DNA from: Promethearchaeota archaeon
Lineage (GTDB): Archaea; Asgardarchaeota; Hermodarchaeia; Hermodarchaeales; Hermodarchaeaceae
Assembly: GCA_048938295.1 (NCBI GenBank)
Contig: JBHLMI010000003.1
Span: 60,001 to 92,000, forward strand
DNA length: 32,000 nt
Reading direction: 5' to 3'
Position numbers and translations under genes: made by a program. The notes below the pieces were generated by a model, which did not search any database, had not been told where the DNA came from, and saw only the letters and a program-made list of their open reading frames with translations. This document shows, one piece after another, positions 5,323 to 32,000 of the stretch; position 1 is the stretch's first letter, and every line of letters starts with the position of its first letter.

Positions 5323-6642
5323 ATGGCTGTTCATGACCTCAAAGTAGCCAATGGCCGGCTAGTTTTACCAGATCGTGTTGAAGAAGCCGACTTGTTGATT
5401 GATGACGGGATTATCACTGCAATAGTTAAACCTGCCTTATCTAAGTCGGAACATGCCAGTGAAGTTATAGATGCCTCCGGCTACCTTGTCTTGCCGGGGC
5501 TTGTAGACGTTCATGTGCATTTCCGCGATCCTGGATTTCCTGCCAAAGAGGATTTTGCCTCGGGGTCGTTAGCCGCTGCTGCGGGTGGTGTGACTACTGT
5601 CATTGATATGCCCAATACTAATCCACCGACAACCACCCCTGAACGACTTCAGGATAAAATTGATCGTGCTGCAAGGAATTGTCTAGTCGATTTTGCCTTC
5701 CATGGCGGTCCATATAGGACAGATGATATCAAAACCTCCCTAACGGCTGAGGACGAGGTTATGGTCATCGATATGGCGCAGCAACTCATTGAAAGAGGAA
5801 TTGTATCATTCAAGATTTACATGCCCCACCAAGAAGCCATCTATCTCCCCCTTTTAGCGCCTTTGGGACACCTTATAACGGTCCATGCTGAAGAGCCAAA
5901 ATTGCTTAATACACCGACGGATGGTTCATCATTTGCATTTCTCGCGAGTCGACCACCGGAGGCTGAAGTACAGGCTATAGAGCAACTGCTGGCGAATCCT
6001 CCGGTGTGTGGATTTCATATTTGCCATCTATCAACGGCTGCAGGGTTTCGTCGAATTCTTGCTGCATGGCATAAGGGAATTCCTGTGACCACTGAAGTCA
6101 CTCCACATCATCTACTCCTCACGGTCAAAGACTTAGCGGAAATCGGTCCAATCGCGAAATGCTATCCACCCTTACGGTCGAAATCAGATACAGAAGCTCT
6201 CTTAAACGCTTGTTTTGCTGACCAGATTAAAATCATCGCTTCAGATCATGCCCCGCATACCGCCGCAGAAAAAACCGGCGCAGATGCGGATTTTGCCTCA
6301 GCGCCTGCAGGCATCATTGGCGTTGAGACCATGCTTCCACTTATGTACACCAAATTAGTTCATGACGCCGAAATGACCATCTCACATCTCATCCGTATGA
6401 TGGCCCTCAACCCTGCAGTATGGTTTGGGATTCGTAACACCCAATGGATTGAAAAAGGACAATTTGAAGTAGGAGCTGATGCGGATCTAGTGCTCTTCAA
6501 CCATAAAACTCAATATTCCATCCGTGGTGATTTGCTCCATAGTAAGGCCACCCTAACCCCCTACGAAGGATGGAAAGTCAGGGGGAAAATTTGTCAAACT
6601 ATTCTTGGTGGCCAAACGATTTTTGAAAGTGACCTTGAATGA
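5323..6642 (+). CDS. pyrC: Dihydroorotase (amidohydrolase superfamily)
   Basis: PGLVDVHVHFRDPG, GGVTTVIDMPNT, VHAE, CHLST, EVTPHHL, K..PPLR, SDHAPH. It lies between pyrD and pyrK. Confidence 0.92.
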   Translation: MAVHDLKVANGRLVLPDRVEEADLLIDDGIITAIVKPALSKSEHASEVIDASGYLVLPGLVDVHVHFRDPGFPAKEDFASGSLAAAAGGVTTVIDMPNTNPPTTTPERLQDKIDRAARNCLVDFAFHGGPYRTDDIKTSLTAEDEVMVIDMAQQLIERGIVSFKIYMPHQEAIYLPLLAPLGHLITVHAEEPKLLNTPTDGSSFAFLASRPPEAEVQAIEQLLANPPVCGFHICHLSTAAGFRRILAAWHKGIPVTTEVTPHHLLLTVKDLAEIGPIAKCYPPLRSKSDTEALLNACFADQIKIIASDHAPHTAAEKTGADADFASAPAGIIGVETMLPLMYTKLVHDAEMTISHLIRMMALNPAVWFGIRNTQWIEKGQFEVGADADLVLFNHKTQYSIRGDLLHSKATLTPYEGWKVRGKICQTILGGQTIFESDLE

Positions 6643-7529
6643 CACCTAATATAACGGTAAAAAAGAATCCTGCAAAGCTAATCCATGGCCTTCGGCCTTT
6701 TGTTGGACCAATTCAACAGATTCGACAGGAAACCCCTCGAACAAAATCCTTTACCCTTGAGGCCACTGATATCGCACGTGCTGCTGTTCCCGGACAGTTT
6801 ATGATGATCTGGATTCCTGGAGTCGATGAAATTCCTATGAGTATCTCCGCAGTTCGAAGTTCCTCAGGGCAGGTGGAATTTGCTGCAGCTAAAGTAGGAG
6901 AGGCGACTGCGGCGTTACATAGAATGAAAGAAGGCGACCTCTTAGGTCTTCGTGGACCACTGGGACAAGGTTTCAAGTTCCCCCGATCCATCGATAAAGG
7001 ACCTCTACTATGTGTTGCTGGTGGATGTGGATCACCACCCTTAGCCTTTGCCGCGGAGTGGGCGGTGAGAAAGGGACACGAGGTTCATGTGGCCCTAGGT
7101 GCCAGTACCCAGTCTGACTTGTTATTTCAAAAACGATTTGAAGCACACGCACAGAAGGTGATCATTGCCACTGATGACGGATCTGAGGGAATCCAAGGCA
7201 CATCTGTAGATGCAGCAGCCTTTCACCTCGATATCGACTCTCGTTATGCAGCGTGTTTAGCCTGTGGACCAGAGGCGATGTTAACAAGTCTGGCAGAACT
7301 ACTCTCCAAGTATCCCATTCCGTTACAGGTCAGTTTAGAGCGTTACATGAAGTGCGGTATTGGATTATGTGGCCATTGCATCATTGACAATCATGGAACT
7401 CGAGTATGCTTAGAGGGACCCGTGTTCGATGCAAAAATCTTGCGAAAGACTGATTTTGGTAAATGGAAACGTGACGGAACAGGAAAACGCTTACCCTTTG
7501 ATTCTAATGACGAAAGCTGCGAGGGCTAG
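6639..7529 (+). CDS. pyrK: Dihydroorotate dehydrogenase electron-transfer subunit (FAD, 2Fe-2S)
   Basis: PGQFMMIWIPGVDEIPMSI, RGPLGQGF, GGCG, CGPEAM, SLERYMKCGIGLCGHC...CLEGPVF. Overlaps the pyrC stop by 4 nt. Confidence 0.95.
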   Translation: MTPNITVKKNPAKLIHGLRPFVGPIQQIRQETPRTKSFTLEATDIARAAVPGQFMMIWIPGVDEIPMSISAVRSSSGQVEFAAAKVGEATAALHRMKEGDLLGLRGPLGQGFKFPRSIDKGPLLCVAGGCGSPPLAFAAEWAVRKGHEVHVALGASTQSDLLFQKRFEAHAQKVIIATDDGSEGIQGTSVDAAAFHLDIDSRYAACLACGPEAMLTSLAELLSKYPIPLQVSLERYMKCGIGLCGHCIIDNHGTRVCLEGPVFDAKILRKTDFGKWKRDGTGKRLPFDSNDESCEG

Positions 7530-7554
7530 AAAACCACAATACTGAGGTGGCACA

Positions 7555-8265
7555 GTGAAGCGATCGAATGTACTTGCAGGCTATTCTTCATGGCTGCTCT
7601 TTCTTGTGGGAACCATCCTCATCATCGCTGGAGGACTTATCTATGCACTTCCCCAAAGCCTCCTAACTCCCTTTTCTCTGGCCATCATAGTCCTGGGTAT
7701 CGTGCTTCTTTTTCAGACCTCCTGTGCCTTTCAGTCTAACAATGATGTGAAACTAATTTTAGCCATCATCGTGTCATCAGTACTTGTAATCTTTATTGAT
7801 TTCTGGCCAGTTCAAATGTTCTATTCAAACACAACAGCAAGTCTTCTCCGGTTGGTGGGAATTAGTTCTATACAACAAAGCACTCCTCACTTTGGAGGAG
7901 TCCAAGTTATCATCTTTGTCCGAGAGGCAGTGACAAATCGGATTGTCGGTGGGGAAATCGACAACGGGTGTGCAGGGCTCATGGCCTTAATTCCCTGTTT
8001 GATCCTCCTCTTCTTGGCTGATACCTACCGTGAACCGAAACCCGAAAGACTCATTGTTGGAATCCTGGCAGTATGCATCATTGTCCTGGGGAATCTTTTC
8101 AGAATCTTTGTCGAATTATGGGCTCCGGCTGTGGGCCTAATACCCTTCGAGTATGTCCACTACCCACTTGCGTTTCTACTAGGCTATTTTGGCGTCACCG
8201 TTATCGCCATTCTTGGACAGCGAATACTAAAACGTGAAAAGAGTCAAACTTTCAAAAAGAACTAG
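7555..8265 (+). CDS. Exosortase/archaeosortase-family membrane protein
   Basis: Multi-TM protein with the family's catalytic pattern: I..GC139AG, N180..R183I and H202, each next to a TM segment. GAGGTGG lies upstream of the GTG start, 25 nt after pyrK. Confidence 0.85.
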   Translation: MKRSNVLAGYSSWLLFLVGTILIIAGGLIYALPQSLLTPFSLAIIVLGIVLLFQTSCAFQSNNDVKLILAIIVSSVLVIFIDFWPVQMFYSNTTASLLRLVGISSIQQSTPHFGGVQVIIFVREAVTNRIVGGEIDNGCAGLMALIPCLILLFLADTYREPKPERLIVGILAVCIIVLGNLFRIFVELWAPAVGLIPFEYVHYPLAFLLGYFGVTVIAILGQRILKREKSQTFKKN

Positions 8266-9656
8266 CCTGGATTGGCTATGTAGGCTAGAATCTGTTTGGC
8301 ATCAGCTGCTGATAGACGTTTTTCCATCTCGAGAGTTTTGATAATCAGAGAAATCGAAGCTAACTTGTGCAGCTTGATCTTTTCCTTTTTTAGCTGTTCT
8401 GCGCCTCCCTGCTCTCGATCAACTGCGACAAGCACGTCGGTGACCTTCGCACCAGCTTCTCGCAGCGCCTCAACTGCTTCGAGCTTGCTTCCACCGTCGG
8501 TGATAAGATCATCGATAACCAAGATCTGATCCCCCTGTTCAAAGACGCCTTCCACTCGTTTCTGCCTCCCATATTTCTTAGGTTGTTTCCTGATATACAA
8601 TAAAGGCATGCTTAGACGGTTACACACAGCAGTAGCAAAAGAGATACCTGCAGTGGGAACTCCAGCGATTCGGGTGAATGTTACCTCAGGATGACCTGTA
8701 ATCCATCCGGTGAACAGGTCGGCTAACTCTTTGAACTCCTGGGGAAAAGATGGGATAACGCGGAGATCTATGTAGTAGGGACTTTTTTTTCCGGATGCGA
8801 GGGTGAAGTCACCGAACTGGATTGCTCCGGTGTTATGGAGTAAAATCGCGATGGATTTTACAAACTCATCCTTGTCAGCTGGTTGAGGTGTTAGTTGAGG
8901 TTTGGTTGTAAAGGTTTGCTGGGCAAATTCTTTTGCTTTAGCAACAGGATTATTCGCAGCATAGATGGATCGTCCGATAATTTCGTAATTGGCACCTGCG
9001 GCAATGGCTGAACCTGGTTTTCCTCCCTGGGCACCAACACCAGGAGCCAGAACGAGTGGGGCTCTTCCAATCTGATTGCGAATGGCTCGGACATGAGCAG
9101 GCCGAGTGCCTGGGGAAATCACTCCGGTGACCTGCATTTGTTTTGCAAGGTCCACCATCCGGGGTGTCTCGGGGTGAATGAATTGCGCTGCCCCTGGATG
9201 ACTCATATCCACGACGAGAATGACCCCCCTATCACCAGCTTTCTTCGCTTCTTCTACTACTGCTTGGATTGCATCACTTCCAATAAAGCCTTGAACGATG
9301 ATTGCATCAATATTGGCAGCAAAAGTATGACGAGCAATCCACGCATTTGTGTTATCGATATCAGCGACTTTGAAATCAGCAATGAGAGGTAATTCAGGGG
9401 CGACAAGCTTCAACTTGTGCGCGATTTCCAACCCAACAGAAAGTACAAGCGGATAATTCAGTTTTATTGCAACAACATAAGGAGCTACAGCTGCAGCGAG
9501 ATGGCAGGCTTGTTCGATAAGGACCTGTTTTTCGGAATCAGGAGCATTCGGGGAAAACGTATTAGCCAAGTCAAGGGCATGAATTACCCGTGTGTGATGA
9601 GATTCAACCCTTTTTTCAAGCGTTTGGATGAAAACTTGCCCAATCAATTTCGCCAT
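8262..9656 (-). CDS. pyrF-pyrE: Bifunctional OMP decarboxylase (N-terminal) - orotate phosphoribosyltransferase (C-terminal)
   Basis: N-half: DFKVADIDNT, PGVGAQGG, IIGRSIY. C-half: FTLASGKKSPYYIDLR, YIRKQPKKYG, VIDDLITDGGS. Both lie in one uninterrupted 464-aa frame. Confidence 0.95.
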   Translation of the reverse strand: MAKLIGQVFIQTLEKRVESHHTRVIHALDLANTFSPNAPDSEKQVLIEQACHLAAAVAPYVVAIKLNYPLVLSVGLEIAHKLKLVAPELPLIADFKVADIDNTNAWIARHTFAANIDAIIVQGFIGSDAIQAVVEEAKKAGDRGVILVVDMSHPGAAQFIHPETPRMVDLAKQMQVTGVISPGTRPAHVRAIRNQIGRAPLVLAPGVGAQGGKPGSAIAAGANYEIIGRSIYAANNPVAKAKEFAQQTFTTKPQLTPQPADKDEFVKSIAILLHNTGAIQFGDFTLASGKKSPYYIDLRVIPSFPQEFKELADLFTGWITGHPEVTFTRIAGVPTAGISFATAVCNRLSMPLLYIRKQPKKYGRQKRVEGVFEQGDQILVIDDLITDGGSKLEAVEALREAGAKVTDVLVAVDREQGGAEQLKKEKIKLHKLASISLIIKTLEMEKRLSAADAKQILAYIANPG

Positions 9657-9685
9657 AGAGATGATCCTCCTGTAGACTTACGGGA

Positions 9686-10204
9686 TTAACTTGCCCCTTG
9701 CAGTTGCTCGATGAGATGTTCATGATGGGAAATGCGTTTACAATAGGAACAGCGGAGTGTTACCGGAGAGCGATCAACGACACTGAAATGACTCTTAATC
9801 CCGCGTTCATTGTTGGTGATGCAATTTGGGTTCTCGCATCGAACAATTCCAATAATTTTGTCAGGCACCTCAATACGCATTTTGCCGAAAATCTTATAAT
9901 TTCGGATAATATTGATGGTGGCTTGTGGTGCGACAAGGGCAATTCGGTTAATTTCATCAGCAGTTAATTCTCGCCTTTCAACTTTGATGATATCCTTTTT
10001 CCCCATCCGTTGGCTTTGTACATTCATGGCGATGCTCAAAACATCACCTTCTTGCCCATTGATACCGAGGATTTGTAACACCGCGAGGGCGTAACCAGCG
10101 GTGATGTGGTCAATAACCGTTCCCGCCGGGATTTTTTGAATACGCAGCGTGTCATCTTTCTCCTCGGTTTTGGATTTCGAAGATTTCGGTTTAGTCGAGT
10201 TCAT
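9686..10204 (-). CDS. pyrI: Aspartate carbamoyltransferase regulatory subunit
   Basis: GTVIDHI, KDIIKVE, APQATINIIRNY, Zn motif CENPNCITN...CSYC. Carries a short Lys/Ser-rich N-terminal extension. Confidence 0.97.
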   Translation of the reverse strand: MNSTKPKSSKSKTEEKDDTLRIQKIPAGTVIDHITAGYALAVLQILGINGQEGDVLSIAMNVQSQRMGKKDIIKVERRELTADEINRIALVAPQATINIIRNYKIFGKMRIEVPDKIIGIVRCENPNCITNNERGIKSHFSVVDRSPVTLRCSYCKRISHHEHLIEQLQGAS

Positions 10205-11136
10205 TTCACATTTGCCTCTAATAGTAGTGATAATATGGCCATTCGGACCAGGACTCCATGAAACATTTGTTGGAAGTATCGTGCATAGGGGGTTTCGTCG
10301 ACGTCGGGGGCAATCTCATCAACACGGGGTAGGGGATGCAGGATATCAAGATTAGGTTTCACATCTTTTAACATGCTTTTGTCGATACGGAATACGCCGC
10401 GTACTTGCTCATAATCAGCAGGTGTGGGAAAACGCTCCTTTTGAATCCGTGTAGCATAGAGCACGTCAAGTTCGGGGAGGATGTCTTTCAAATCGCTAGT
10501 CATTATAACTTCCTTTCCTTGTTCTCGAAGGTCCATCACGATCTCATCGGGTAATTCCAATCCAGGTGGTGCGATGCAATAGAGTCGATTTGTGAAACGT
10601 GTGATGGCATAGGAAAGTGAATGAACGGTCCTACCGAACCGTAAGTCGCCCACTACTGCAATGTTCAAATCCTTTAACCGACCCTGACTGCGACGGATAG
10701 TAGAGAGATCCAGAAGCGTTTGCGTTGGATGACGGCCTGCTCCGTCACCAGCGTTGATAATTGGTACACTTGATACTTCGGCGGCCCATTGTGCAGCACC
10801 TTCCTGTGGATGCCGCAAGACGATCACATCCGCATAGTTGTCTACGGTCCGAATCGTATCCGCAAGGGATTCGCCCTTCGCTACTGATGAAGCGCCAACG
10901 TCCGCTACCGTGATGGAGGATCCACCAAGTCTAGCCATGGCAGATTCGAAGCTAAGGCGTGTTCGAGTAGAAGGCTCATAAAACAGGGTGGCTAGGATTT
11001 TTCCCGAAAGAAGCTTTGAAGGTTTCTCACCACGAACCAAGGGCTCCATTTTGTCAGCTAGGTCAAGGACTATGAGTATCTCCTTAGTGCTGAGGTCTGC
11101 AATACTGATTAGGTTCTTAACCTTGAGTGACACCAT
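10201..11136 (-). CDS. pyrB: Aspartate carbamoyltransferase catalytic subunit
   Basis: FYEPSTRTRLSF, KGESLADT, INAGDG..RHPTQTLLD, GDLRFGRTVHS, TRIQKERF, HPLPRVDEI. Confidence 0.98.
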   Translation of the reverse strand: MVSLKVKNLISIADLSTKEILIVLDLADKMEPLVRGEKPSKLLSGKILATLFYEPSTRTRLSFESAMARLGGSSITVADVGASSVAKGESLADTIRTVDNYADVIVLRHPQEGAAQWAAEVSSVPIINAGDGAGRHPTQTLLDLSTIRRSQGRLKDLNIAVVGDLRFGRTVHSLSYAITRFTNRLYCIAPPGLELPDEIVMDLREQGKEVIMTSDLKDILPELDVLYATRIQKERFPTPADYEQVRGVFRIDKSMLKDVKPNLDILHPLPRVDEIAPDVDETPYARYFQQMFHGVLVRMAILSLLLEANVK

Positions 11137-23693: not shown

Positions 23694-26591
23694 ATGAAAA
23701 ATCTAAAAATTCTGAGTGTAGTGTTACTAGCGGTTCTTTGTATTCCCTTTTTATCTATAAATCCCACACCCGCATCTCAGTCTCATTTTGTTATTGAGAC
23801 GGGTATGAGCAAAAGTGCTAATCCAGTGATTCCATCGCCCGAACCTCCACACCGTATTCTACCTATCCGATTACTGGTATATACTGAATTTGTGGATGCG
23901 TCTCCGGGTGGAGAATTTGAGAATGTAATGACCTCCATCAATATCACATATGGTACCGATTATTATTGGACCAACCTCTCATCCTATACGAATCTTGCCA
24001 GCGAACTTCCGAATCATGATGTCCTCATCATTCCTGAACAGGAAGCCGCTTATAAAGCGAATATGACGGTGGTTGGACAAGCCTGGGATCCCATTTTATC
24101 CAATTGGGTTCAAGCAGGAGGAATTGTCATCCTAATGGCTTACTGGGAGATGGAAATTGGTGAACAAGGCATCACCGCCCATATCTATAACGAAACTGGG
24201 CTCATTACGTATTCAAGTGCTATTCCAGTGACATTATCACCGATTTTTCTGGTGAATACTTCTGATGCACTTGCGCGAGGAGTTTCCGGGTCTTGGGCAG
24301 CTCCGGATGGGACAGTTGCTTTTGCTACTTCAGAAGGAACCGTCGTTGTTGATGATGGTGCCTTTCCAGTGGTGATTCACAAGGTTCTAGGAACTGGACA
24401 TGTCATCCTATTAGGTGCTGATTTCTATCTTACAGAGCCCAATATGCAAGCATTACTGGCTAATTCCATTCGGCTCCATCGGCATATAATCTTTGACAAT
24501 TCCCACAGTCAATATGAGAACATTTTTGGTGCATACAGCACCTTCGCTGATGATTTAGTGGCTCAAAATTTCGCAGTTTCGACCTGTAACAACTTTGATC
24601 CGATTTATATCGCCGCATCTGATGTGTTCATCGTTCCCTATTGTGCAACCTCATTTACTGCTTCAGAAAAGACCTACCTTGAAGACTATGTGATGCAGGG
24701 AGGCGGAACCTTTCTCCTAGGTGATTGGGGAAGTTGGGGAAATGAAATTAACGAGCTAACCAACCTTTTTGGATATAATCTTGATACTAGCGGTACAAGG
24801 CTAATAGACACAAATGATAATGAACCTCCAATAAATGATGTCAGCCAACCTTTCTATTCAGGGTCAAACATTCATAACCACTCTCTAACATTAGGTGTTT
24901 CAACCGTTCAGATGTTCTATGGAACCGGAATTACAACCATGCCTACTCACGCATTCAGTGCGATTACAGCGGATCTTGATGGAACAGCTTACTGGTTAAA
25001 TGCTACTCCCGCAGACGGAGTGACATGCTATGCTGCTTCAACCCATGGATTAGGACGAATTGTGGTCTCAGGTGATTGCAATTTCATAGAAGATGATAGC
25101 GACTACGATTCTGATGGTACTTTTGACTATTTTGAACACGACCATGACACCCTTTTAGTTAATACCATTCGTTGGCTATCAGCTGCAGGCATAAAAGAAC
25201 GAACTGTCCTCTTCGATGACTCTCACAGCCCCTATTGGAGCTTCAGTAATTACGTAGATTTCACAGATTATCTGACCTCTAATGGGTATACTGTTCATTG
25301 GATGTCAACGTTCTACTCGAACCTCGTGACTGCCGCCGACATTCTAGTGATTAGTGGAGCCTCTGTTCCCTATTCACCAGCTGAAAATGTCACAATACGG
25401 AACTTCGTATCTAACGGCGGTGGATTAGTATTATTAGCAGATTGGACCTTCTTCGGAGATAATCTCCTTCCGGTCGCTAATGAATTTGGGATGAGCCATA
25501 ACAACACTCATGCATATCTTTCGGATTCCGACGATGGATCAGGTGGTGGAAATTCGGCTATCACCTATGAGGGAAGTAATATAGGTGTACACCCCATTAC
25601 CACTGGTGTTCACGAGATTTATGTGGACCGAGGAACTGGCTTGATTAATCTCGGAGGTGGCACTGCCTTAGTGATAACGGATAATGATGGCACCTCCCAA
25701 TGGTACGATGATAGCTCATTGTACTGGCCGGCACCTTCTGTTCCAGTCTTTGCAGCAAACACCTTTGGTTTGGGTCGAATTGTCTATCTCACAGATATCA
25801 ACTTCTTTGACAATGCAGTCTTCGATCGCGAGGATAACAATCTCTTCTTAGTGAATGCGTTCCAATGGCTTGCTGTGAATCGCGCACCGACCGTCACGAT
25901 AACTTCACCTAATGGTGGTGAAGTAATTGAAGGGGCCATAAACAGCATAACTTGGACAGCCCAGGATCCCAACAAGGATTCCATGACGTATGACATCCTC
26001 TACAGCATCAATGGTGGCGCCTCTTGGACGCCCATCGCAACCGGCCACACAACAACAAGTATCAACTGGGATGCTAGTAGCGTTCCCGAAAGCATGGATG
26101 CACTGATTCGCGTGGTGGCCCACGACTACGAACTCTCAGGTCAGGATGACTCGGATGCTATCTTCACCGTTGAGAGTGAAGGCCCTCAAATCAGTAATAT
26201 CCAAACAACCCCAGCAATACCATTGGCGAGCATTCCTGTTATTGTTTCAGCCGATATTATTGACGCAAGTGGCGTCGCTTCGGCAGTCTGCCAAGTGAGT
26301 ATCAATAGCGGTTCGACCTGGACCGACTTCACTATGACCGTTAGCTCAGGTTCCACCTATGAAGCAGATATCGGAGCTTATACTGCTGGAACAACAGTTG
26401 ATTATCGCATCGTGGCCACTGATTCGTCTACTGCCTCGCGCATACGGACATCGCCAATTTCTAGCTTCTACATCCCAGCATTACCACCAGTTATTCCTGG
26501 CTTTCCGATCGAAGCCATTATCTTAGCGCTTGCAGCCGGTTTGGGCTTCATTCTCCTCGTTCGTCGGCGTCGCCACACGGTGTCCTCCTAA
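23694..26591 (+). CDS. Cell-surface glycoprotein: signal peptide, class-I-GATase-like domain, two DUF4350/GIFT-like domains, Ig-like domains, IPGFP-TM-RRRR sorting tail
   Basis: Signal peptide MKNLKILSVVLLAVLCIPFL. Tandem domains start IIFDNSH (aa 265) and VLFDDSH (aa 505), each with GRIV and ending N...WL. ITSPNGGE beta-sandwich. C-terminus IPGFPIEAIILALAAGLGFILLVRRRR. Many N-x-S/T sequons. Confidence 0.88.
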   Translation: MKNLKILSVVLLAVLCIPFLSINPTPASQSHFVIETGMSKSANPVIPSPEPPHRILPIRLLVYTEFVDASPGGEFENVMTSINITYGTDYYWTNLSSYTNLASELPNHDVLIIPEQEAAYKANMTVVGQAWDPILSNWVQAGGIVILMAYWEMEIGEQGITAHIYNETGLITYSSAIPVTLSPIFLVNTSDALARGVSGSWAAPDGTVAFATSEGTVVVDDGAFPVVIHKVLGTGHVILLGADFYLTEPNMQALLANSIRLHRHIIFDNSHSQYENIFGAYSTFADDLVAQNFAVSTCNNFDPIYIAASDVFIVPYCATSFTASEKTYLEDYVMQGGGTFLLGDWGSWGNEINELTNLFGYNLDTSGTRLIDTNDNEPPINDVSQPFYSGSNIHNHSLTLGVSTVQMFYGTGITTMPTHAFSAITADLDGTAYWLNATPADGVTCYAASTHGLGRIVVSGDCNFIEDDSDYDSDGTFDYFEHDHDTLLVNTIRWLSAAGIKERTVLFDDSHSPYWSFSNYVDFTDYLTSNGYTVHWMSTFYSNLVTAADILVISGASVPYSPAENVTIRNFVSNGGGLVLLADWTFFGDNLLPVANEFGMSHNNTHAYLSDSDDGSGGGNSAITYEGSNIGVHPITTGVHEIYVDRGTGLINLGGGTALVITDNDGTSQWYDDSSLYWPAPSVPVFAANTFGLGRIVYLTDINFFDNAVFDREDNNLFLVNAFQWLAVNRAPTVTITSPNGGEVIEGAINSITWTAQDPNKDSMTYDILYSINGGASWTPIATGHTTTSINWDASSVPESMDALIRVVAHDYELSGQDDSDAIFTVESEGPQISNIQTTPAIPLASIPVIVSADIIDASGVASAVCQVSINSGSTWTDFTMTVSSGSTYEADIGAYTAGTTVDYRIVATDSSTASRIRTSPISSFYIPALPPVIPGFPIEAIILALAAGLGFILLVRRRRHTVSS

Positions 26592-26614
26592 GAGGACACC
26601 CCCACACCTTTTTT
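26579..26614 (+). terminator. Hairpin with stop codon in its loop + 8-nt spacer + T6
   Basis: Perfect 9-bp stem GGTGTCCTC/GAGGACACC, loop CTAA (TAA is the stop codon), spacer CCCACACC, then T6 at 26609-26614. Confidence 0.7.
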
Positions 26615-26688
26615 GTTTAGATTGAAATTCTAACTAATTAACTATTAAGAACTCCACTTTGGAAAAGAAATTATCAAAAGCGGGACGT

Positions 26689-26724
26689 AAAAAAAAGAGA
26701 GGAGGTGGAGGAAGGTTCCTCCAC
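26689..26724 (-). terminator. Hairpin + 8-nt spacer + T8
   Basis: Minus strand: GTGGAGGA-ACCT-TCCTCCAC (perfect 8 bp), spacer CTCCTCTC, then T8. The stem begins 8 nt after the 26733 stop. Confidence 0.7.
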
Positions 26725-26732
26725 ATTGGTTT

Positions 26733-29348
26733 CTATTTGTTTGAACTCCGTCGTCGCATGAGTAAGTAGATGACAATGACTACAATGATGATGACGATGA
26801 CCAAGGCCACAATCCACCACCACCATGGAAGACCTGGAATCGGTGGAGGCGTGAAAGGTAAGGGAATAGCTTGAATGTCTGCACTAACTTGTGCAGCGGA
26901 GTAAGTCGTTCCCGGGAGGCCATAGTAGTCGGCATCAAAGAGGAGAGTGAAGTTACCCGCTCCACCGACGAGAATGCTCCAGACGATGTTCTGGCTTCCA
27001 CCTGGTGCAACAAAGAACGGAAGCGTTGCAGGGGTTGAAAGAGTTCCGAGACCAGGAGGAACCGTCACCGTAATTTCGCCCTCAACAGCACCTGTGAGTC
27101 CAAGGTTTTCAATGAGACATTCGAAGTTAATAGCAAAGCCAGTAGTAGCAGTCACTGGTACGTTAGGAATAAGGACACACCGTGGGGCCATCATGTAGGC
27201 GATTTCATTGATCCAAAGCTCAAAGCGATCCTCATAAGTGGAATCGTCTTCATCTAATCCAAAGTTATCAATGAGATAGCCATTAAGTAAGGTCTTATGG
27301 TCATTGCGTTCGATAATGAATGCTCCGGCGGCAATAGTCGTGGTTTGGTTGCCAGCTAACGCTGTCGCATTAGAATATACTGTGAATTTCGCCCCATCAG
27401 TGGAATAGCTAAAGGTTGTATTGAAGTTTGAGATTGTGAACAGATGAGGAATCGTAAAAACATCGTGCGTTGGATCCCAAACGAAGACCTGAGGATCACC
27501 AGAAACGTAGCTTTCAAATGCAACGCCAAGCCGATCCCATAAACGATGGGCAGAATCAGTCCCAGCAGTCCAAGTTGAGAGGATGAGTGAGCCACCAGCA
27601 TCTAAATAATTCACAAGATCGTCATAATAGGTGTCGAGCCCACCATAATTGGCGTTATCGACGATGACAAAGTCCCAAGAGTACAGGTTGAGTGAATGGT
27701 TGAAGTACTCGAACCGGGGTGAATCGTAGGGTCCTGTCAAGTAAAACTTGATGCCCAGATCATTGAGGGCTCGTGCGACAGGAGTTCGATAGTAGTTGAT
27801 ACTGAAAACTTCATCGGTATAAATCAGTACCCGTGCCAGTGATGAGCTGAGCCAGTTGGCCATGTTAAGAATTGATTGTCTGTTATTGGCTGAACTAAAG
27901 GGAACGCCGTCTTGGATCCAGTTCATGTCCGCGACTAGTACTGCACGACCGCTTCCGTAAGTACTTGTGGCTACGACAATATTGGGTCCATCATACCACA
28001 CGCCGGTAGCTGAACCACTGACATTCACTGCTCCATAGTAATCGAGGTAGAAACTAGAACAGCCCTCAGTAATTGGGTGCATGGTAAATGTGCTTGTGGT
28101 TAAAGTTGTGGCTCCCTGGAATGTATCGTTTATGGTTAGCCCAAAGGGACTAAGAAGCATGCTAGTTTGATGATTTTGTGGAGTAAACCAGATGGGATCA
28201 GGATAATCGCCAAAAGCTAGAACTGATCCGCCGTTGTTAGCCCAGTTTTGAAATGCCGTTCGATCTCCCGCAGTATAGTTGTAATCCGGTACATTGACGA
28301 CCAACATATCATAGGGATTAAGCCGTGCCAAGGTGAAATTGTCACCGCTGGCAGCAGGATAGAGTTTGTCGACTAAGAATCCGTGGGAAACCCATTCATT
28401 GCGCATCTCCGTATATGAGCCAGGATACATTGAATAGGGAGAATCCCAGGGATCGATAGACCGTCGGGGAAGATGAGACAAGTCATAGACGATTCGTCCC
28501 TTGGACCGGGGACAAAGCCATTGAACCGCATCGCTGATCATTTGATGAATACCTGGAAGCGGTTCTGTACTTCCATCCCACCAGAAGTGGACTACACGGC
28601 CACCTTCAACTGATGGATCATAAGCGAGAACGGTAACTTCGTCTTCATTTAGTCCATCATGTGCAACTCTGGTAAAATCGGAACCATACACAGAGGCCAC
28701 AAGAGCGGTCCAATCCCATTCTGCATAGCCATACGGTGAAAGTGTGTAAGTGTCCCCGACTGCGTAGTTCTTTGAAACAGGGTGTCGAGTCGTAACATTG
28801 GCACTATTACCACCGTAGGTCCAATATCCAGGATTACCATTGGTCCCTGTGGTTGCTGGGGTCATAATGCCCATGTAACAAGAGTAAACGGCGAAGCTGT
28901 CAAAGCCGAGGAGGGCCCCACCTCCAAGCCAGTATTCATAGATTTGGTTGGTGATATTCTCACGTGGTAGAGTATCGGGGATTACAAACACATCATAGTG
29001 TGCGGTCAACAGTTGATGATTGTAGATATCGTTCGTACTGAGCATTGTTGTTTGGTATCCAGCAGCTTGAAGGATGGATGCAATCTGACTGGATGAATTA
29101 GTATTAATTGAACCAAGGCCTCCTTCATAGGAAGGAGAGGTAGTGTTGGGTTCATTGTATATCGCAACACGAATCGCATCCGGTGGTATCGTCACCGCCA
29201 AGGGTTCGGTAAAAAAGCTCGGACCTATAGCTGGTTCGAAAGAATCCTCAGCAGGAGTCGATGTTGGAATGTAGATTACAGGTACGATGAACATTGGAAA
29301 AAGTAGAGATACCAGTAACAGTACTGAAATGAGCCTAGAATTTCTCAT
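26733..29348 (-). CDS. Cell-surface glycoprotein with GATase-like/DUF4350-like domains, Ig-like stalk and IPGLPWWWW-TM-RRR tail
   Basis: ATG at 29348 follows GGGAG. Signal peptide MRNSRLISVLLLVSLLFPMF. Domains RVAIYNE, IVYDLSH...GRAVLVADMNW...NMANWL, RVLIYTD. C-terminus PPPIPGLPWWWWIVALVIVIIIVVIVIYLLMRRR. Confidence 0.88.
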   Translation of the reverse strand: MRNSRLISVLLLVSLLFPMFIVPVIYIPTSTPAEDSFEPAIGPSFFTEPLAVTIPPDAIRVAIYNEPNTTSPSYEGGLGSINTNSSSQIASILQAAGYQTTMLSTNDIYNHQLLTAHYDVFVIPDTLPRENITNQIYEYWLGGGALLGFDSFAVYSCYMGIMTPATTGTNGNPGYWTYGGNSANVTTRHPVSKNYAVGDTYTLSPYGYAEWDWTALVASVYGSDFTRVAHDGLNEDEVTVLAYDPSVEGGRVVHFWWDGSTEPLPGIHQMISDAVQWLCPRSKGRIVYDLSHLPRRSIDPWDSPYSMYPGSYTEMRNEWVSHGFLVDKLYPAASGDNFTLARLNPYDMLVVNVPDYNYTAGDRTAFQNWANNGGSVLAFGDYPDPIWFTPQNHQTSMLLSPFGLTINDTFQGATTLTTSTFTMHPITEGCSSFYLDYYGAVNVSGSATGVWYDGPNIVVATSTYGSGRAVLVADMNWIQDGVPFSSANNRQSILNMANWLSSSLARVLIYTDEVFSINYYRTPVARALNDLGIKFYLTGPYDSPRFEYFNHSLNLYSWDFVIVDNANYGGLDTYYDDLVNYLDAGGSLILSTWTAGTDSAHRLWDRLGVAFESYVSGDPQVFVWDPTHDVFTIPHLFTISNFNTTFSYSTDGAKFTVYSNATALAGNQTTTIAAGAFIIERNDHKTLLNGYLIDNFGLDEDDSTYEDRFELWINEIAYMMAPRCVLIPNVPVTATTGFAINFECLIENLGLTGAVEGEITVTVPPGLGTLSTPATLPFFVAPGGSQNIVWSILVGGAGNFTLLFDADYYGLPGTTYSAAQVSADIQAIPLPFTPPPIPGLPWWWWIVALVIVIIIVVIVIYLLMRRRSSNK

Positions 29349-29463
29349 AACAGAATACTCCCAAAATTTTGGGTTATAGAGCAATTAGGATTCTAGGCTA
29401 TAAACGCACCGTTCAGCTTCTACATTCATTCTATAAATTGAACTTACAGGCACTCGAACGGCT

Positions 29464-29500
29464 AAAAAAAGGGAGGAAGGGAAGCGGTGTTACCGCTTCC
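29464..29500 (-). terminator. Hairpin overlapping the last codons and stop + 9-nt spacer + T7
   Basis: Minus strand: GGAAGCGGT-AAC-ACCGCTTCC (perfect 9 bp, spans ...RKR-TAA), spacer CTTCCTCCC, then T7. Confidence 0.7.
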
Positions 29501-32000
29501 TGCGTCGATAAAGTATTCCAACTGAGAGAGCAACCATGGCTCCAAGAGCTATAGCTTCGATGGGGAAGCCCGGAATTGGCGGTGGTGGAGGTGGTAAGCC
29601 ACCAGTTATGGTGATATCTTCCACGTTACTCCACGGTCCCCGTGCACCATCATCGTCAATGGCACGTACACGGAAGTAAAAGTCACCCGATGTTGGGGCA
29701 GATACATTGTATTCGGTTTGTGTCGTGGGATAGGTTGCCAGGACTACGGTGAAGCCAGCAGTATTGGAACTCTGAAGTTCATAGCTGTCCACGGTTCCAT
29801 CAGGGTCAGTGCTAGCTGACCATGAGATAGTAATTGTTCCTGCAGGAGCAGTTGTACCAGGATCAGTGAGGACAGGAGCAGTAGGAGGCTGGGTATGCAC
29901 ATAGCTGATGGTAATGTTGAAGAGGCGAGCACTGACATCATGCCGACCAGTTCCAAGGATTGCCCTAAAGCGGAGGTCGGAGCCTTGATGATTGAAGGGG
30001 TGAGGAACTCCGAGTGTGACGGCTTCCCAGTCAGTTCCTCCATTGGCTGAAAGTTCCCAACCAATCGTAGTATCTGTGGGGAGCATGGCCGTCATAGTGA
30101 CTGTTGCTTCCACGATGACTTCAGTGGTCGAGTCCACTGCCAATGATTGGGCGACCGAACCGCCGGTGTTGTAGGAACTTGCGATACTCTCAAAGAATTG
30201 GTAGATTTCGAGAGAACCCCGGCTAGCCACATAGACATAATCTCCGTGCGTAATGAGCTGCGTGGCATGGGAGCCTGCTAAGGCTGTGCGGATGACTGGT
30301 GTATTGTAAATGTTAGTAGCATCGAAGAGGCTGATACCAGCGGTGTTGTTAGCGATGAACATGTAAGGCCCGAAACCCCACGTTCCAAGAGCAATATCGG
30401 TGCTAGGGTTGGCAACTGACCATGTGATACTATACGGATCTGTCATGTTGTAAACAACGGCGAAGCCAACATCTGTGACGTATGCAATATCTCCATCAAC
30501 GTAGATGCTGGTATGGTTTTGTGTCATGGAGAGTATATCGGTTGGTACGATGTTGGATAGGTCTGTGAGATCGAAGACAGCGATATTCGAATCAGATGAA
30601 GGGGTATTGGAAACGGCGTATAGATGATGCCCCTGGACCCATACTGATGTCACATTGGGTACTGTGCCTAAATCGTAATAGCTAAGGAGAGTGGGACCAG
30701 CAAACGGATTGGACGCATTTAACAGATATACCCCATAGGTACCATCTGCGACGAATATGACATCGCCGGCGACGGCAACATCATATGGATAGCTCAGTGT
30801 ATAGGTACTCAGGTATTGGAGATTCGATGGATCAGAGATGTCATAGACGCGAACACCTCCAAAGGGGGCGTCGCATACAAAAGCCAAGTGGCCTTGGATA
30901 TCTAGGCGGCGATAGAACCGTCCAGGTGCAGTGGTATGATTATCGAGGTAGACTGGATGGGCGGGATCACTAATATCAACGGAGAGAAGCCCACTTTCGC
31001 CAGCGGCGATGAACGCCACGTTGCCTTGGATTCTGATATCGTTGTAATCATATCCGCCAGCAATGCTGCCAATGTGAGCGAGGCTAGGTGTGAGGTTCCC
31101 CACCCGATATGTAAGTACACCAGTGTCTGCTCCAACGACGAGAACACCCGCATACAAATCGAGATCCCAGACCATGGGAATACCTATCGTAGCGATGTGA
31201 GTGGGATGAGCGGGACTGGTTACGTCGATAATTTGGACACCACCAGTTTCGTCTGCGACGAAGAGCGTGTTGCCATGAAGCGCTAAACGGCGTGCATTTC
31301 CGGGAGTATCAATACTTCCAATGATACTGATATCAAAAGGATTTGTAACATCGACAACTTGGACACCGCTAGGACCATCAGCCACATAGGCGATTGGACC
31401 ATCGATGAGAACATCTGTTGCGTTTCCGGGCGTATCAACGAAATCAGGTTCGTAGACAACATAGGGATTTGATACGTTGCAAAGATAGAGCCCGTACTCG
31501 CTTTCGGCAAGATAAGCGATCTGTCCATCAATAGCAATTCCACGAGTCGTTACTGAATTCCAAACTGATGGCAATAGGACAGGATTCAGTGGATCTTCAA
31601 AGTCAATAATGCGAAAGGCATGAGTGGAGCCAGATCCAACTGCCGTGGCAAAGACGAAATGGCCTTGCACTTCAATATCGGTGGTCATCCCATCGAGAAA
31701 AACTGTTCCAAGGAAAGTCGGGCCTAAAGCATAATGATAGGGATTAGAGACATTGTACCGTGCAACTCCACCTGAATATCGTCCGGCGTAGAAGATGTCA
31801 CCGTCAATTCTGGCACAAATCAGATCACTCAAGGAAGTTCGTGATGACATAACCTCAAGATTCGTTGGATCTGTAATATTGAGGATCCTGTTGCTGTTTG
31901 CCAAGGCTCCATAGTGTACATAGTAGACCTTACGGCCTTGGACATCCACTCCCATCACTGGATAAGTGGTCGTGAAGTTATCGAGCAGTGTAATTGTATA
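29490..32000 (-). CDS. LVIVD-repeat beta-propeller surface protein with fibronectin type III domain and IPGFP-TM-RRRKR sorting tail (5'-truncated by window edge)
   Basis: Many repeats of the type AYVADG.SGVQVVDVTNP / LFVADE.GGVQIIDVTSP. Fn3 motifs ITISWSAS...YELQ...YFRVRAID...GPWS. C-terminus PPPPIPGFPIEAIALGAMVALSVGILYRRRKR. The frame is open from 32000 (YTITLLDNFTTTYPV...), so the true start is outside the window. Confidence 0.9.
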   Translation of the reverse strand, partial: YTITLLDNFTTTYPVMGVDVQGRKVYYVHYGALANSNRILNITDPTNLEVMSSRTSLSDLICARIDGDIFYAGRYSGGVARYNVSNPYHYALGPTFLGTVFLDGMTTDIEVQGHFVFATAVGSGSTHAFRIIDFEDPLNPVLLPSVWNSVTTRGIAIDGQIAYLAESEYGLYLCNVSNPYVVYEPDFVDTPGNATDVLIDGPIAYVADGPSGVQVVDVTNPFDISIIGSIDTPGNARRLALHGNTLFVADETGGVQIIDVTSPAHPTHIATIGIPMVWDLDLYAGVLVVGADTGVLTYRVGNLTPSLAHIGSIAGGYDYNDIRIQGNVAFIAAGESGLLSVDISDPAHPVYLDNHTTAPGRFYRRLDIQGHLAFVCDAPFGGVRVYDISDPSNLQYLSTYTLSYPYDVAVAGDVIFVADGTYGVYLLNASNPFAGPTLLSYYDLGTVPNVTSVWVQGHHLYAVSNTPSSDSNIAVFDLTDLSNIVPTDILSMTQNHTSIYVDGDIAYVTDVGFAVVYNMTDPYSITWSVANPSTDIALGTWGFGPYMFIANNTAGISLFDATNIYNTPVIRTALAGSHATQLITHGDYVYVASRGSLEIYQFFESIASSYNTGGSVAQSLAVDSTTEVIVEATVTMTAMLPTDTTIGWELSANGGTDWEAVTLGVPHPFNHQGSDLRFRAILGTGRHDVSARLFNITISYVHTQPPTAPVLTDPGTTAPAGTITISWSASTDPDGTVDSYELQSSNTAGFTVVLATYPTTQTEYNVSAPTSGDFYFRVRAIDDDGARGPWSNVEDITITGGLPPPPPPIPGFPIEAIALGAMVALSVGILYRRRKR

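Follow-up and report, generated by a model that had tools for sequence, protein, structure and literature searches.

Gene A, a divergent archaeosortase confined to Hermodarchaeia, and paralog B as the more probable sortase of Loki-CTERM proteins in the same genome

We analyzed a 32,000-nucleotide stretch of the genome of a Promethearchaeota archaeon (contig JBHLMI010000003.1, positions 60,001 to 92,000), hereafter called the window. The window carries an archaeosortase-family gene at 7555-8265 of the forward strand (gene A), and the same genome holds a second paralog on another contig, C50 (gene B). The results suggest that A is a divergent archaeosortase found only in Hermodarchaeia, and that the Loki-CTERM tails of two surface proteins in the window are more probably processed by B; we hold this joint reading with moderate confidence. 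A preliminary description, made from the letters of the window, had taken A and the tailed proteins nearby as a cognate enzyme-substrate pair. This pairing was probably misassigned, because B lay outside the window to which that description was confined.

Paralog B and the Loki-CTERM tails

The source genome (2.52 Mb in 66 contigs, 91.6% complete) has exactly two homologs of the exosortase/archaeosortase family, namely A and B. B (contig C50, locus L001, 1207-1947) encodes 246 aa with the motifs RECTGIQ, NVLRV, and HYP; its neighbors are a histidine kinase gene, a small divergent membrane open reading frame (ORF), and two KaiC-like ATPase genes. The best NCBIfam matches of B were the heimdallarchaeosortase model NF045528 (59 bits, cut-off 130) and the archaeosortase H (ArtH) model NF041736 (47 bits, cut-off 200). 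The latter was the only match to NF041736 in the source genome, and thus no ArtH above cut-off was found there. True ArtH, with NF041736 scores of 226-323 bits, was found in the Loki-CTERM-rich families f18, f19, and f20. In hhalign comparisons, B aligned with ArtH over 162 columns (probability 99.4%, E 3.6e-21), and A aligned with ArtH over 61 C-terminal columns (probability 38%). A and B aligned with each other at 25% identity (probability 97.9%, E 3.7e-13). These comparisons indicate that B is the ArtH-like enzyme of the Hermodarchaeial lineage, and that the nearest detectable relative of A is B.

The neighborhoods of B-like genes in other lineages also bear on the assignment. In two genomes of family f28 that lack A (G307 and G308), some 700 bp separate the B-like gene from the gene of a 219-aa secreted protein (the pair lies at 949-2883 of locus L056, contig C6, in G307). 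The protein ends in GIPGYPIEGI, a transmembrane (TM) helix, and RRNKKR. This protein was the best match to the Hermodarchaeial tail profile in the whole 4.2-Mb genome of G307. In the metagenome loci L062 (6001-7839) and L063, a more distant B-like gene is convergently overlapped by the gene of a secreted NosD/beta-helix protein whose end reads IPGFPVESI, TM helix, and basic residues. A third metagenome locus (L064, 2001-3797) has the same arrangement, with the ending IPGFPWESI. The loci L056, L062, and L064 look like compact, dedicated sortase-substrate pairs. At two other B-like loci (L065 and L066), no PGF-tailed neighbors were found. The tails beside B-like genes and the window tails have P-x-E after PG[FY] in common, and this feature was absent from 14 of 14 tails read from ArtH genomes. 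We regard B as the more probable Loki-CTERM sortase of the genome, a preference stated with some reserve, because B is closer to ArtH and because B-like genes adjoin IPG[FY]PxE[AGS]I tails in lineages without A.

In a genome rich in Loki-CTERM proteins (family f18, locus L010, contig C59 of G129), which has three archaeosortase homologs, we observed fibronectin-like tailed genes on either side of one of them. These end in GIPGYP and VPGFEP, respectively, each with further residues, a TM helix, and KRR; part of the locus reads N.

The tails themselves were identified with the Loki-CTERM sorting domain model (NCBIfam NF033507, cut-off 19.9 bits). The genome-wide count proposed in the preliminary description gave 12 matches above cut-off in the source genome. 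In a de novo survey of protein ends, about 12 tails read PP-I-PGFP-x-[EA]-AI, and after this motif came a helix rich in Ala, Gly, and Leu and then RRR. In the sample of 400 Asgard genomes, for which all counts are lower bounds because the number of candidates scored in each genome was capped, at least 229 have Loki-CTERM proteins. The signal is nearly universal and present in many copies in the families f1, f18, f19, and f20, of which f19 presumably takes in the cultured Lokiarchaeia. All 19 genomes of f1, the GTDB family of the source genome, have Loki-CTERM proteins. In Hermodarchaeial copies, PGF is invariably followed by P-x-E-A. On these profile matches, the IPGFP tails belong to a signal that already has a catalogue entry, Loki-CTERM, and represent its lineage-specific P-x-E-A form. 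A literature search for Loki-CTERM, archaeosortase H, and Heimdall-CTERM returned nothing usable.

Outside the window, at C32:52966-53300, we also observed a 110-112-aa frame with a perfect Loki-CTERM tail (PPPPIPGFPFAAI-TM-RQQRR). The frame lacks both a signal peptide and a complete protein body and probably represents the C-terminal fragment of a gene.

Gene A as a divergent archaeosortase

Gene A (7555..8265, + strand) starts with GTG and encodes a protein of 236 aa, which the profile searches and the structural model place in the archaeosortase family. The GTG is preceded at a distance of a few bases by AGGTGG, which resembles a Shine-Dalgarno sequence, and the N-termini of homologs align to that start. 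The protein has several TM segments and contains C139-A140-G141 (codons 7969..7977, +), N180-L-F-R183 (8092..8103, +), and H202 (8158..8160, +), all where the preliminary description had placed them. The first, with the putative nucleophile, lies inside an invariant GGEIDNxCAGL block that reads EIDNGCAGL around C139 and G141 in A. The second is a conserved Asn/Arg motif in the context GNLFRI, and H202 lies inside an invariant VHYP block.

Membership of the exosortase/archaeosortase family, as first described, was borne out by profile searches. A scored 30.2 bits with PF09721 (Exosortase_EpsH; curated cut-off 25.7) and 31.7 bits with the exo_archaeo signature TIGR04178 (cut-off 23), the latter being weak but above the threshold. 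In addition, A has the Cys/Arg/His signature of the superfamily (C139, R183, and H202), and its genome contains motif-TM-basic signals (the 12 Loki-CTERM copies) as well as the second paralog. None of the named NCBIfam Art/Xrt subfamily models was matched by A. For instance, the search with ArtH model NF041736 (equivalog cut-off 200 bits) gave no match to A at E <= 10, and neither the heimdallarchaeosortase model NF045528 (cut-off 130 bits) nor the ArtA model TIGR04125 (cut-off 75 bits) matched A, whose third catalytic position is His202 and not Arg.

In an alignment of 31 members of the A family, with identity down to about 40%, 33 columns were invariant, including those of the GGEIDNxCAG, GNxxRI, and VHYP blocks. 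C139, G141, N180, R183, and H202 were invariant or nearly so. In a panel of 25 diverse Asgard archaeosortases, these five residues were the only invariant columns. Thus, because its motifs are invariant, A is probably active, and motifs and profile matches together identify A as a real, unusually divergent archaeosortase-type membrane enzyme. The His at the third position had been offered as a possible mark of a distinct subfamily. The contrast with ArtA on which this rested is correct (PMC9263693, citing Abdul Halim 2018). However, His is invariant in every Asgard archaeosortase of the panel, ArtH and B included, and so it does not set A apart.

Distribution and divergence of A

The A family is small. 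A word-indexed search returned 49 clusters at 90% identity, each of about 232 aa, from metagenome-assembled genomes (MAGs) that carry the label Promethearchaeota, Hermodarchaeota, or Odinarchaeota. When 1.84 billion representative proteins were searched exhaustively with HMMER, no more than 5 clusters passed E < 1e-30 and 13 passed E < 1e-3; the family thus comprises about 5 clusters at 50% identity. Among the 400 Asgard genomes, full-length matches to A were limited to f1 (19 genomes, including the source genome). In G307 and G308, the search gave a weak cross-match to the B-like gene only. The carriers are MAGs of Candidatus Hermodarchaeota and Candidatus Hermodarchaeum yapensis, which agrees with the earlier suggestion of an Asgard-type archaeon.

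A maximum-likelihood tree grouped the A family as a 100/100 clade whose stem measures 2.49 substitutions per site, and it did not settle where this clade belongs among Asgard archaeosortases. A is the fastest-evolving gene of its neighborhood, although its motif blocks are kept: its identity to two relatives is 40% and 53%, whereas ten neighboring genes show 58-83% in the same genomes. The active-site block GGEIDNxCAGL and a PHFGG/beta-sheet insert are specific to the A clade. The earlier suggestion of a distinct subfamily is therefore sustained by the few clusters at E < 1e-30, the isolated clade, and the failure of every named model. Judged by these sequence comparisons, A is a new, small, fast-evolving subfamily that is restricted to Hermodarchaeia and lies outside every named Art/Xrt model.

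Two apparent pseudogenes of A were rejected, since the fragment in G108 lies at a contig end and the split in G105 is a run of N. A was not found in G097, G109, and G110, and B was not found in G098 and G103. Both results fit the 72-87% completeness of these genomes, and so these absences discriminate nothing.

We also noticed a 2961-aa giant adhesin from a metagenome (P0130; type IX secretion system (T9SS), HYR domains, and CHU_C) with 18 repeats that match residues 103-139 of A. The repeats resemble the beta-hairpin before the catalytic Cys (VFL..AGTA.IVGGDIDNG). This Bacteroidetes-type protein was rejected as a homolog of A, because the likeness is a short IVGG(D/E)IDNG beta-hairpin and probably a shared structural motif.

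Predicted structure and mechanism of A

Hydropathy and AlphaFold secondary structure describe A as a polytopic membrane protein. The AlphaFold2 model, computed with the family alignment as input, reached a pLDDT of 90 and a pTM of 0.85. Among its top 30 fold matches in AFDB clusters, the named entries were overwhelmingly exosortases/archaeosortases (probability 1.0, TM-score 0.35-0.58), in line with the family assignment. Sequence and fold searches of the PDB returned no solved relative of A, and the top Foldseek matches there were unrelated 7-TM receptors (TM-score about 0.35).

From the helix order in the model, a weakly hydrophobic helix at 84-100, and the positive-inside rule, we infer an N-in topology with about six TM helices. 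Residues 84-135 would form an extracytoplasmic helix and beta-sheet insert that runs into Cys139, and Arg183 and His202 would be close to where the last two helices end on the outer side. In this arrangement, Cys139, Arg183, and His202 would all come close to the outer membrane face. Our preferred reading of A is a membrane cysteine protease/transpeptidase with an intact catalytic site, from the exosortase/archaeosortase superfamily. If A works like ArtA and the sortases, Cys139 may attack the substrate near its motif with the help of Arg183 and His202. An acyl-enzyme intermediate could form, the TM-basic tail would be released, and the secreted protein would be passed to an acceptor. Modelling A and B together with a 43-aa tail gave a score of 0.26 against a mark of 0.32, without controls, and this result carries no weight either way.

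Genomic neighborhood and tailed proteins of the window

Gene A always stands at the 3' end of pyrD-pyrC-pyrK and is convergent with pyrFE-pyrI-pyrB (5323-11136 of the window; 6800-13600 of the homologous contigs L034 and L035). pyrC (5323-6642, +) lies upstream, and pyrK (6639-7529, +) directly precedes A at a distance of 26 bp. On the other side, the stop codon of a convergent pyrF/pyrE fusion (8262..9656, -) overlaps that of A; its ortholog in L034/L035 has the Pfam domains OMPdecase and Pribosyltran. The order pyrD-pyrC-pyrK-A is kept in L034 and L035, even at 40-53% identity of A. No functional tie between A and the pyrimidine genes was evident.

About 15 kb separate A from the first tailed gene. 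This interval encodes pyrimidine enzymes, a TPR protein, a ParA-like protein, an ATP-grasp protein, a DUF1464 protein, a GHMP kinase, an MptA-type GTP cyclohydrolase, MptE, a pterin-binding enzyme, and unannotated ORFs, and no surface-protein gene was found in it. Given its location in the pyr operon and this interval, A has no operon in common with the tailed genes.

The tailed genes begin 15.4 kb from A, and the tails themselves are 18-21 kb away. All three proteins described earlier as IPG(F/L)P-TM-basic surface proteins are tripartite and, read as full frames from the genome, have signal-peptide-like N-termini. However, only two of the tails match Loki-CTERM. One belongs to a 965-aa secreted DUF4350/GldG-like protein (23694..26591, +), which ends in PPVIPGFPIEAI-TM-RRRRH with the motif VIPGFPIEAI (tail at 26493-26576, 38.1 bits). 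The other belongs to a secreted LVIVD-repeat/PKD protein (29490..31958, -), which spans 932 aa as a frame in the genome and has its N-terminus outside the window. It ends in PPPIPGFPIEAI-TM-RRRKR with the motif PIPGFPIEAI (29493-29576, 35.2 bits). The third, an 883-aa secreted DUF4350-like protein (26733..29384, -), ends in PIPGLPWWWW, an I/V-rich TM helix, and RRR, and NF033507 gave no match to this tail.

The two convergent adjacent genes of this group (23694-29384) both encode DUF4350/GldG-like (ABC_transp_aux) domains. Among the AFDB cluster matches of the A model, we observed an 888-aa protein named as a DUF4350 protein (A0A419FFS3) with an exosortase-like fold at residues 75-295, which hints that the two domain types may be fused elsewhere.

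The third tail fits another class, which recurs genome-wide. In this class 2, P-x-P-[L/I/P]-E stands directly before an I/V-rich TM helix and a C-terminal RRR; examples in the source genome (G000) are C22:31580-31717, C31:2778-2915, C25:5727-5864, and C5:10405-10536, together with 26751-26882 of the window. A profile built from ten tails of the source genome scored 30.2 bits on this stretch of the IPGLP-WWWW protein. None of the NCBIfam models matched the class-2 tail. The tail may simply anchor the protein, or it may be a sorting signal that is not yet catalogued.

Discussion

Several results weigh against B as the Loki-CTERM sortase. Neither A nor B adjoins a tailed gene in any Hermodarchaeial genome, and the assignment to B consequently rests on context in other lineages and on profile similarity. 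Six of the 12 Loki-CTERM copies of the source genome are on the 123-kb contig of A, and none is on the contig of B. Like A, the exact E-A that follows PGFP is found in Hermodarchaeia only. The two enzymes could also be redundant or split the Loki-CTERM set. To our knowledge, activity, cleavage site, and anchor chemistry have been shown for no Asgard archaeosortase. Furthermore, the 91.6%-complete MAG yielded no homolog of phosphatidylserine decarboxylase (PF02666). Thus, the archaetidylethanolamine-dependent lipid-anchoring route described for ArtA in Haloferax (PMC9263693) may not carry over to this system.

Some of these results would suit A instead. It is possible, at a probability well below that of B, that A also handles the Loki-CTERM tails or handles them in place of B. 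The stricter proposal, in which A is the cognate or at least the principal sortase of the IPGFP(x)EAI proteins of the genome, including the two in the window, seems to us slightly more doubtful still. In its favor, A is an intact archaeosortase, it is present wherever the assembly permits in a family whose genomes all have Loki-CTERM proteins, half of the copies of the source genome share its contig, and its restriction to the lineage parallels that of the invariant E-A. Moreover, the lack of a canonical ArtH means that some lineage-specific enzyme must have taken over. However, B is in the same genomes and far nearer to ArtH, and its relatives adjoin IPG[FY]PxE-tailed proteins where A is missing. 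The co-occurrence check suggested in the preliminary description also went against the pairing, since the tail is in at least 229 of the 400 genomes and A is in one family of 19. The pyrimidine operon and the non-surface genes beyond it separate A from the tails. As for the shared contig, the clustering is opposite in G095, where three Loki-CTERM genes lie 7-22 kb from B; loose proximity is therefore uninformative. We thus keep B as the preferred candidate.

A could act on some of the Loki-CTERM tails or on different substrates. It is improbable, in our judgement, that A is specialized for the class-2, non-PGF tails, including that of the IPGLP-WWWW protein in the window, even though two archaeosortases and two recurrent tail classes are in one genome and the third tail of the window fits the second class. 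Hermodarchaeial genomes have 17-22 copies each, with the motif kept in divergent members, and no copies were found at E <= 0.01 in G307, which has a B-like enzyme only, or in G134, which has ArtH only. This enrichment in f1 is partly circular, for the profile was trained on the source genome. Class-2 tails also occur in the Asgard families f31, f3, and f10, whereas archaeosortase homologs were found in none of three f3 genomes and in 4 of 89 genomes of a pooled tally containing f31. Thus, the tail design does not depend on this enzyme family. In addition, the I/V-rich helices resemble ordinary permanent membrane anchors. We give a little more room, still as an unlikely case, to a broader scenario in which Hermodarchaeia replaced ArtH by two divergent archaeosortases, each serving its own part of the surface proteome, and A was neofunctionalized with its own signal. 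That signal could be the class-2 tail or the W-rich IPGLP variant. Such a pair, if true, would be a previously unrecognized sortase-signal pair in Asgard archaea.

The faster evolution of A than of all its neighbors and its very long stem in the tree could instead describe a decaying or non-catalytic paralog that is kept only by its position in the pyr operon. We consider this very improbable, as the 33 invariant columns persist down to about 40% identity, the gene is intact wherever sequence is available, and the fold model is of high confidence. A probably derived from a B-like ancestor and then diverged, although the tree leaves this point unsettled.

Archaeosortase systems determine how proteins are attached at the cell surface. 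In Asgard archaea, which among prokaryotes are most closely related to eukaryotes, surface biology is, as far as we know, almost unexplored by experiment. The present results refine annotation and do not overturn current understanding. Hermodarchaeia lack a canonical ArtH and have two divergent archaeosortases instead. Gene neighborhoods in other lineages tie the B-type enzyme to the P-x-E tail variant and so offer a concrete candidate pair, while A is left as an orphan, fast-evolving paralog. In addition, the case is a warning that loose proximity by itself is not enough to match a sortase with its substrates.

Comparison with known systems

The best-described archaeal system is that of ArtA from Haloferax volcanii, whose critical residues are Cys173, Arg214, and Arg253 (PMC9263693). 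It serves as the mechanistic template: it cleaves a PGF-TM-basic signal and anchors surface proteins, and PGF is in the substrate motif. However, the third site of ArtA is Arg253, whereas A has His202 there, and no PssD-type decarboxylase was found in the 91.6%-complete MAG of A. With the exosortase/archaeosortase superfamily as a whole, A shares the Cys/Arg/His signature, the polytopic fold, and a genome rich in motif-TM-basic tails. Unlike other members, it has the clade-specific GGEIDNxCAGL block and PHFGG insert, and its family is tiny and limited to Hermodarchaeia.

ArtH (NF041736) belongs to the same superfamily and phylum as A and has the same catalytic residues, and ArtH genomes carry IPG[FY]-TM-basic signals like the window tails. 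However, A gave no reportable match to NF041736 and aligned over 61 columns, compared with 162 for B. B itself has the xNxxRxxxE(I/L)W and P(W/F)E.xHYP blocks in common with A. The two differ in the context of the catalytic Cys, which is the usual RECTGIQ in B and GGEIDNxCAGL in A. Furthermore, B is better conserved across the lineage (60-93% identity, compared with 40-88% for A), and it has relatives outside Hermodarchaeia.

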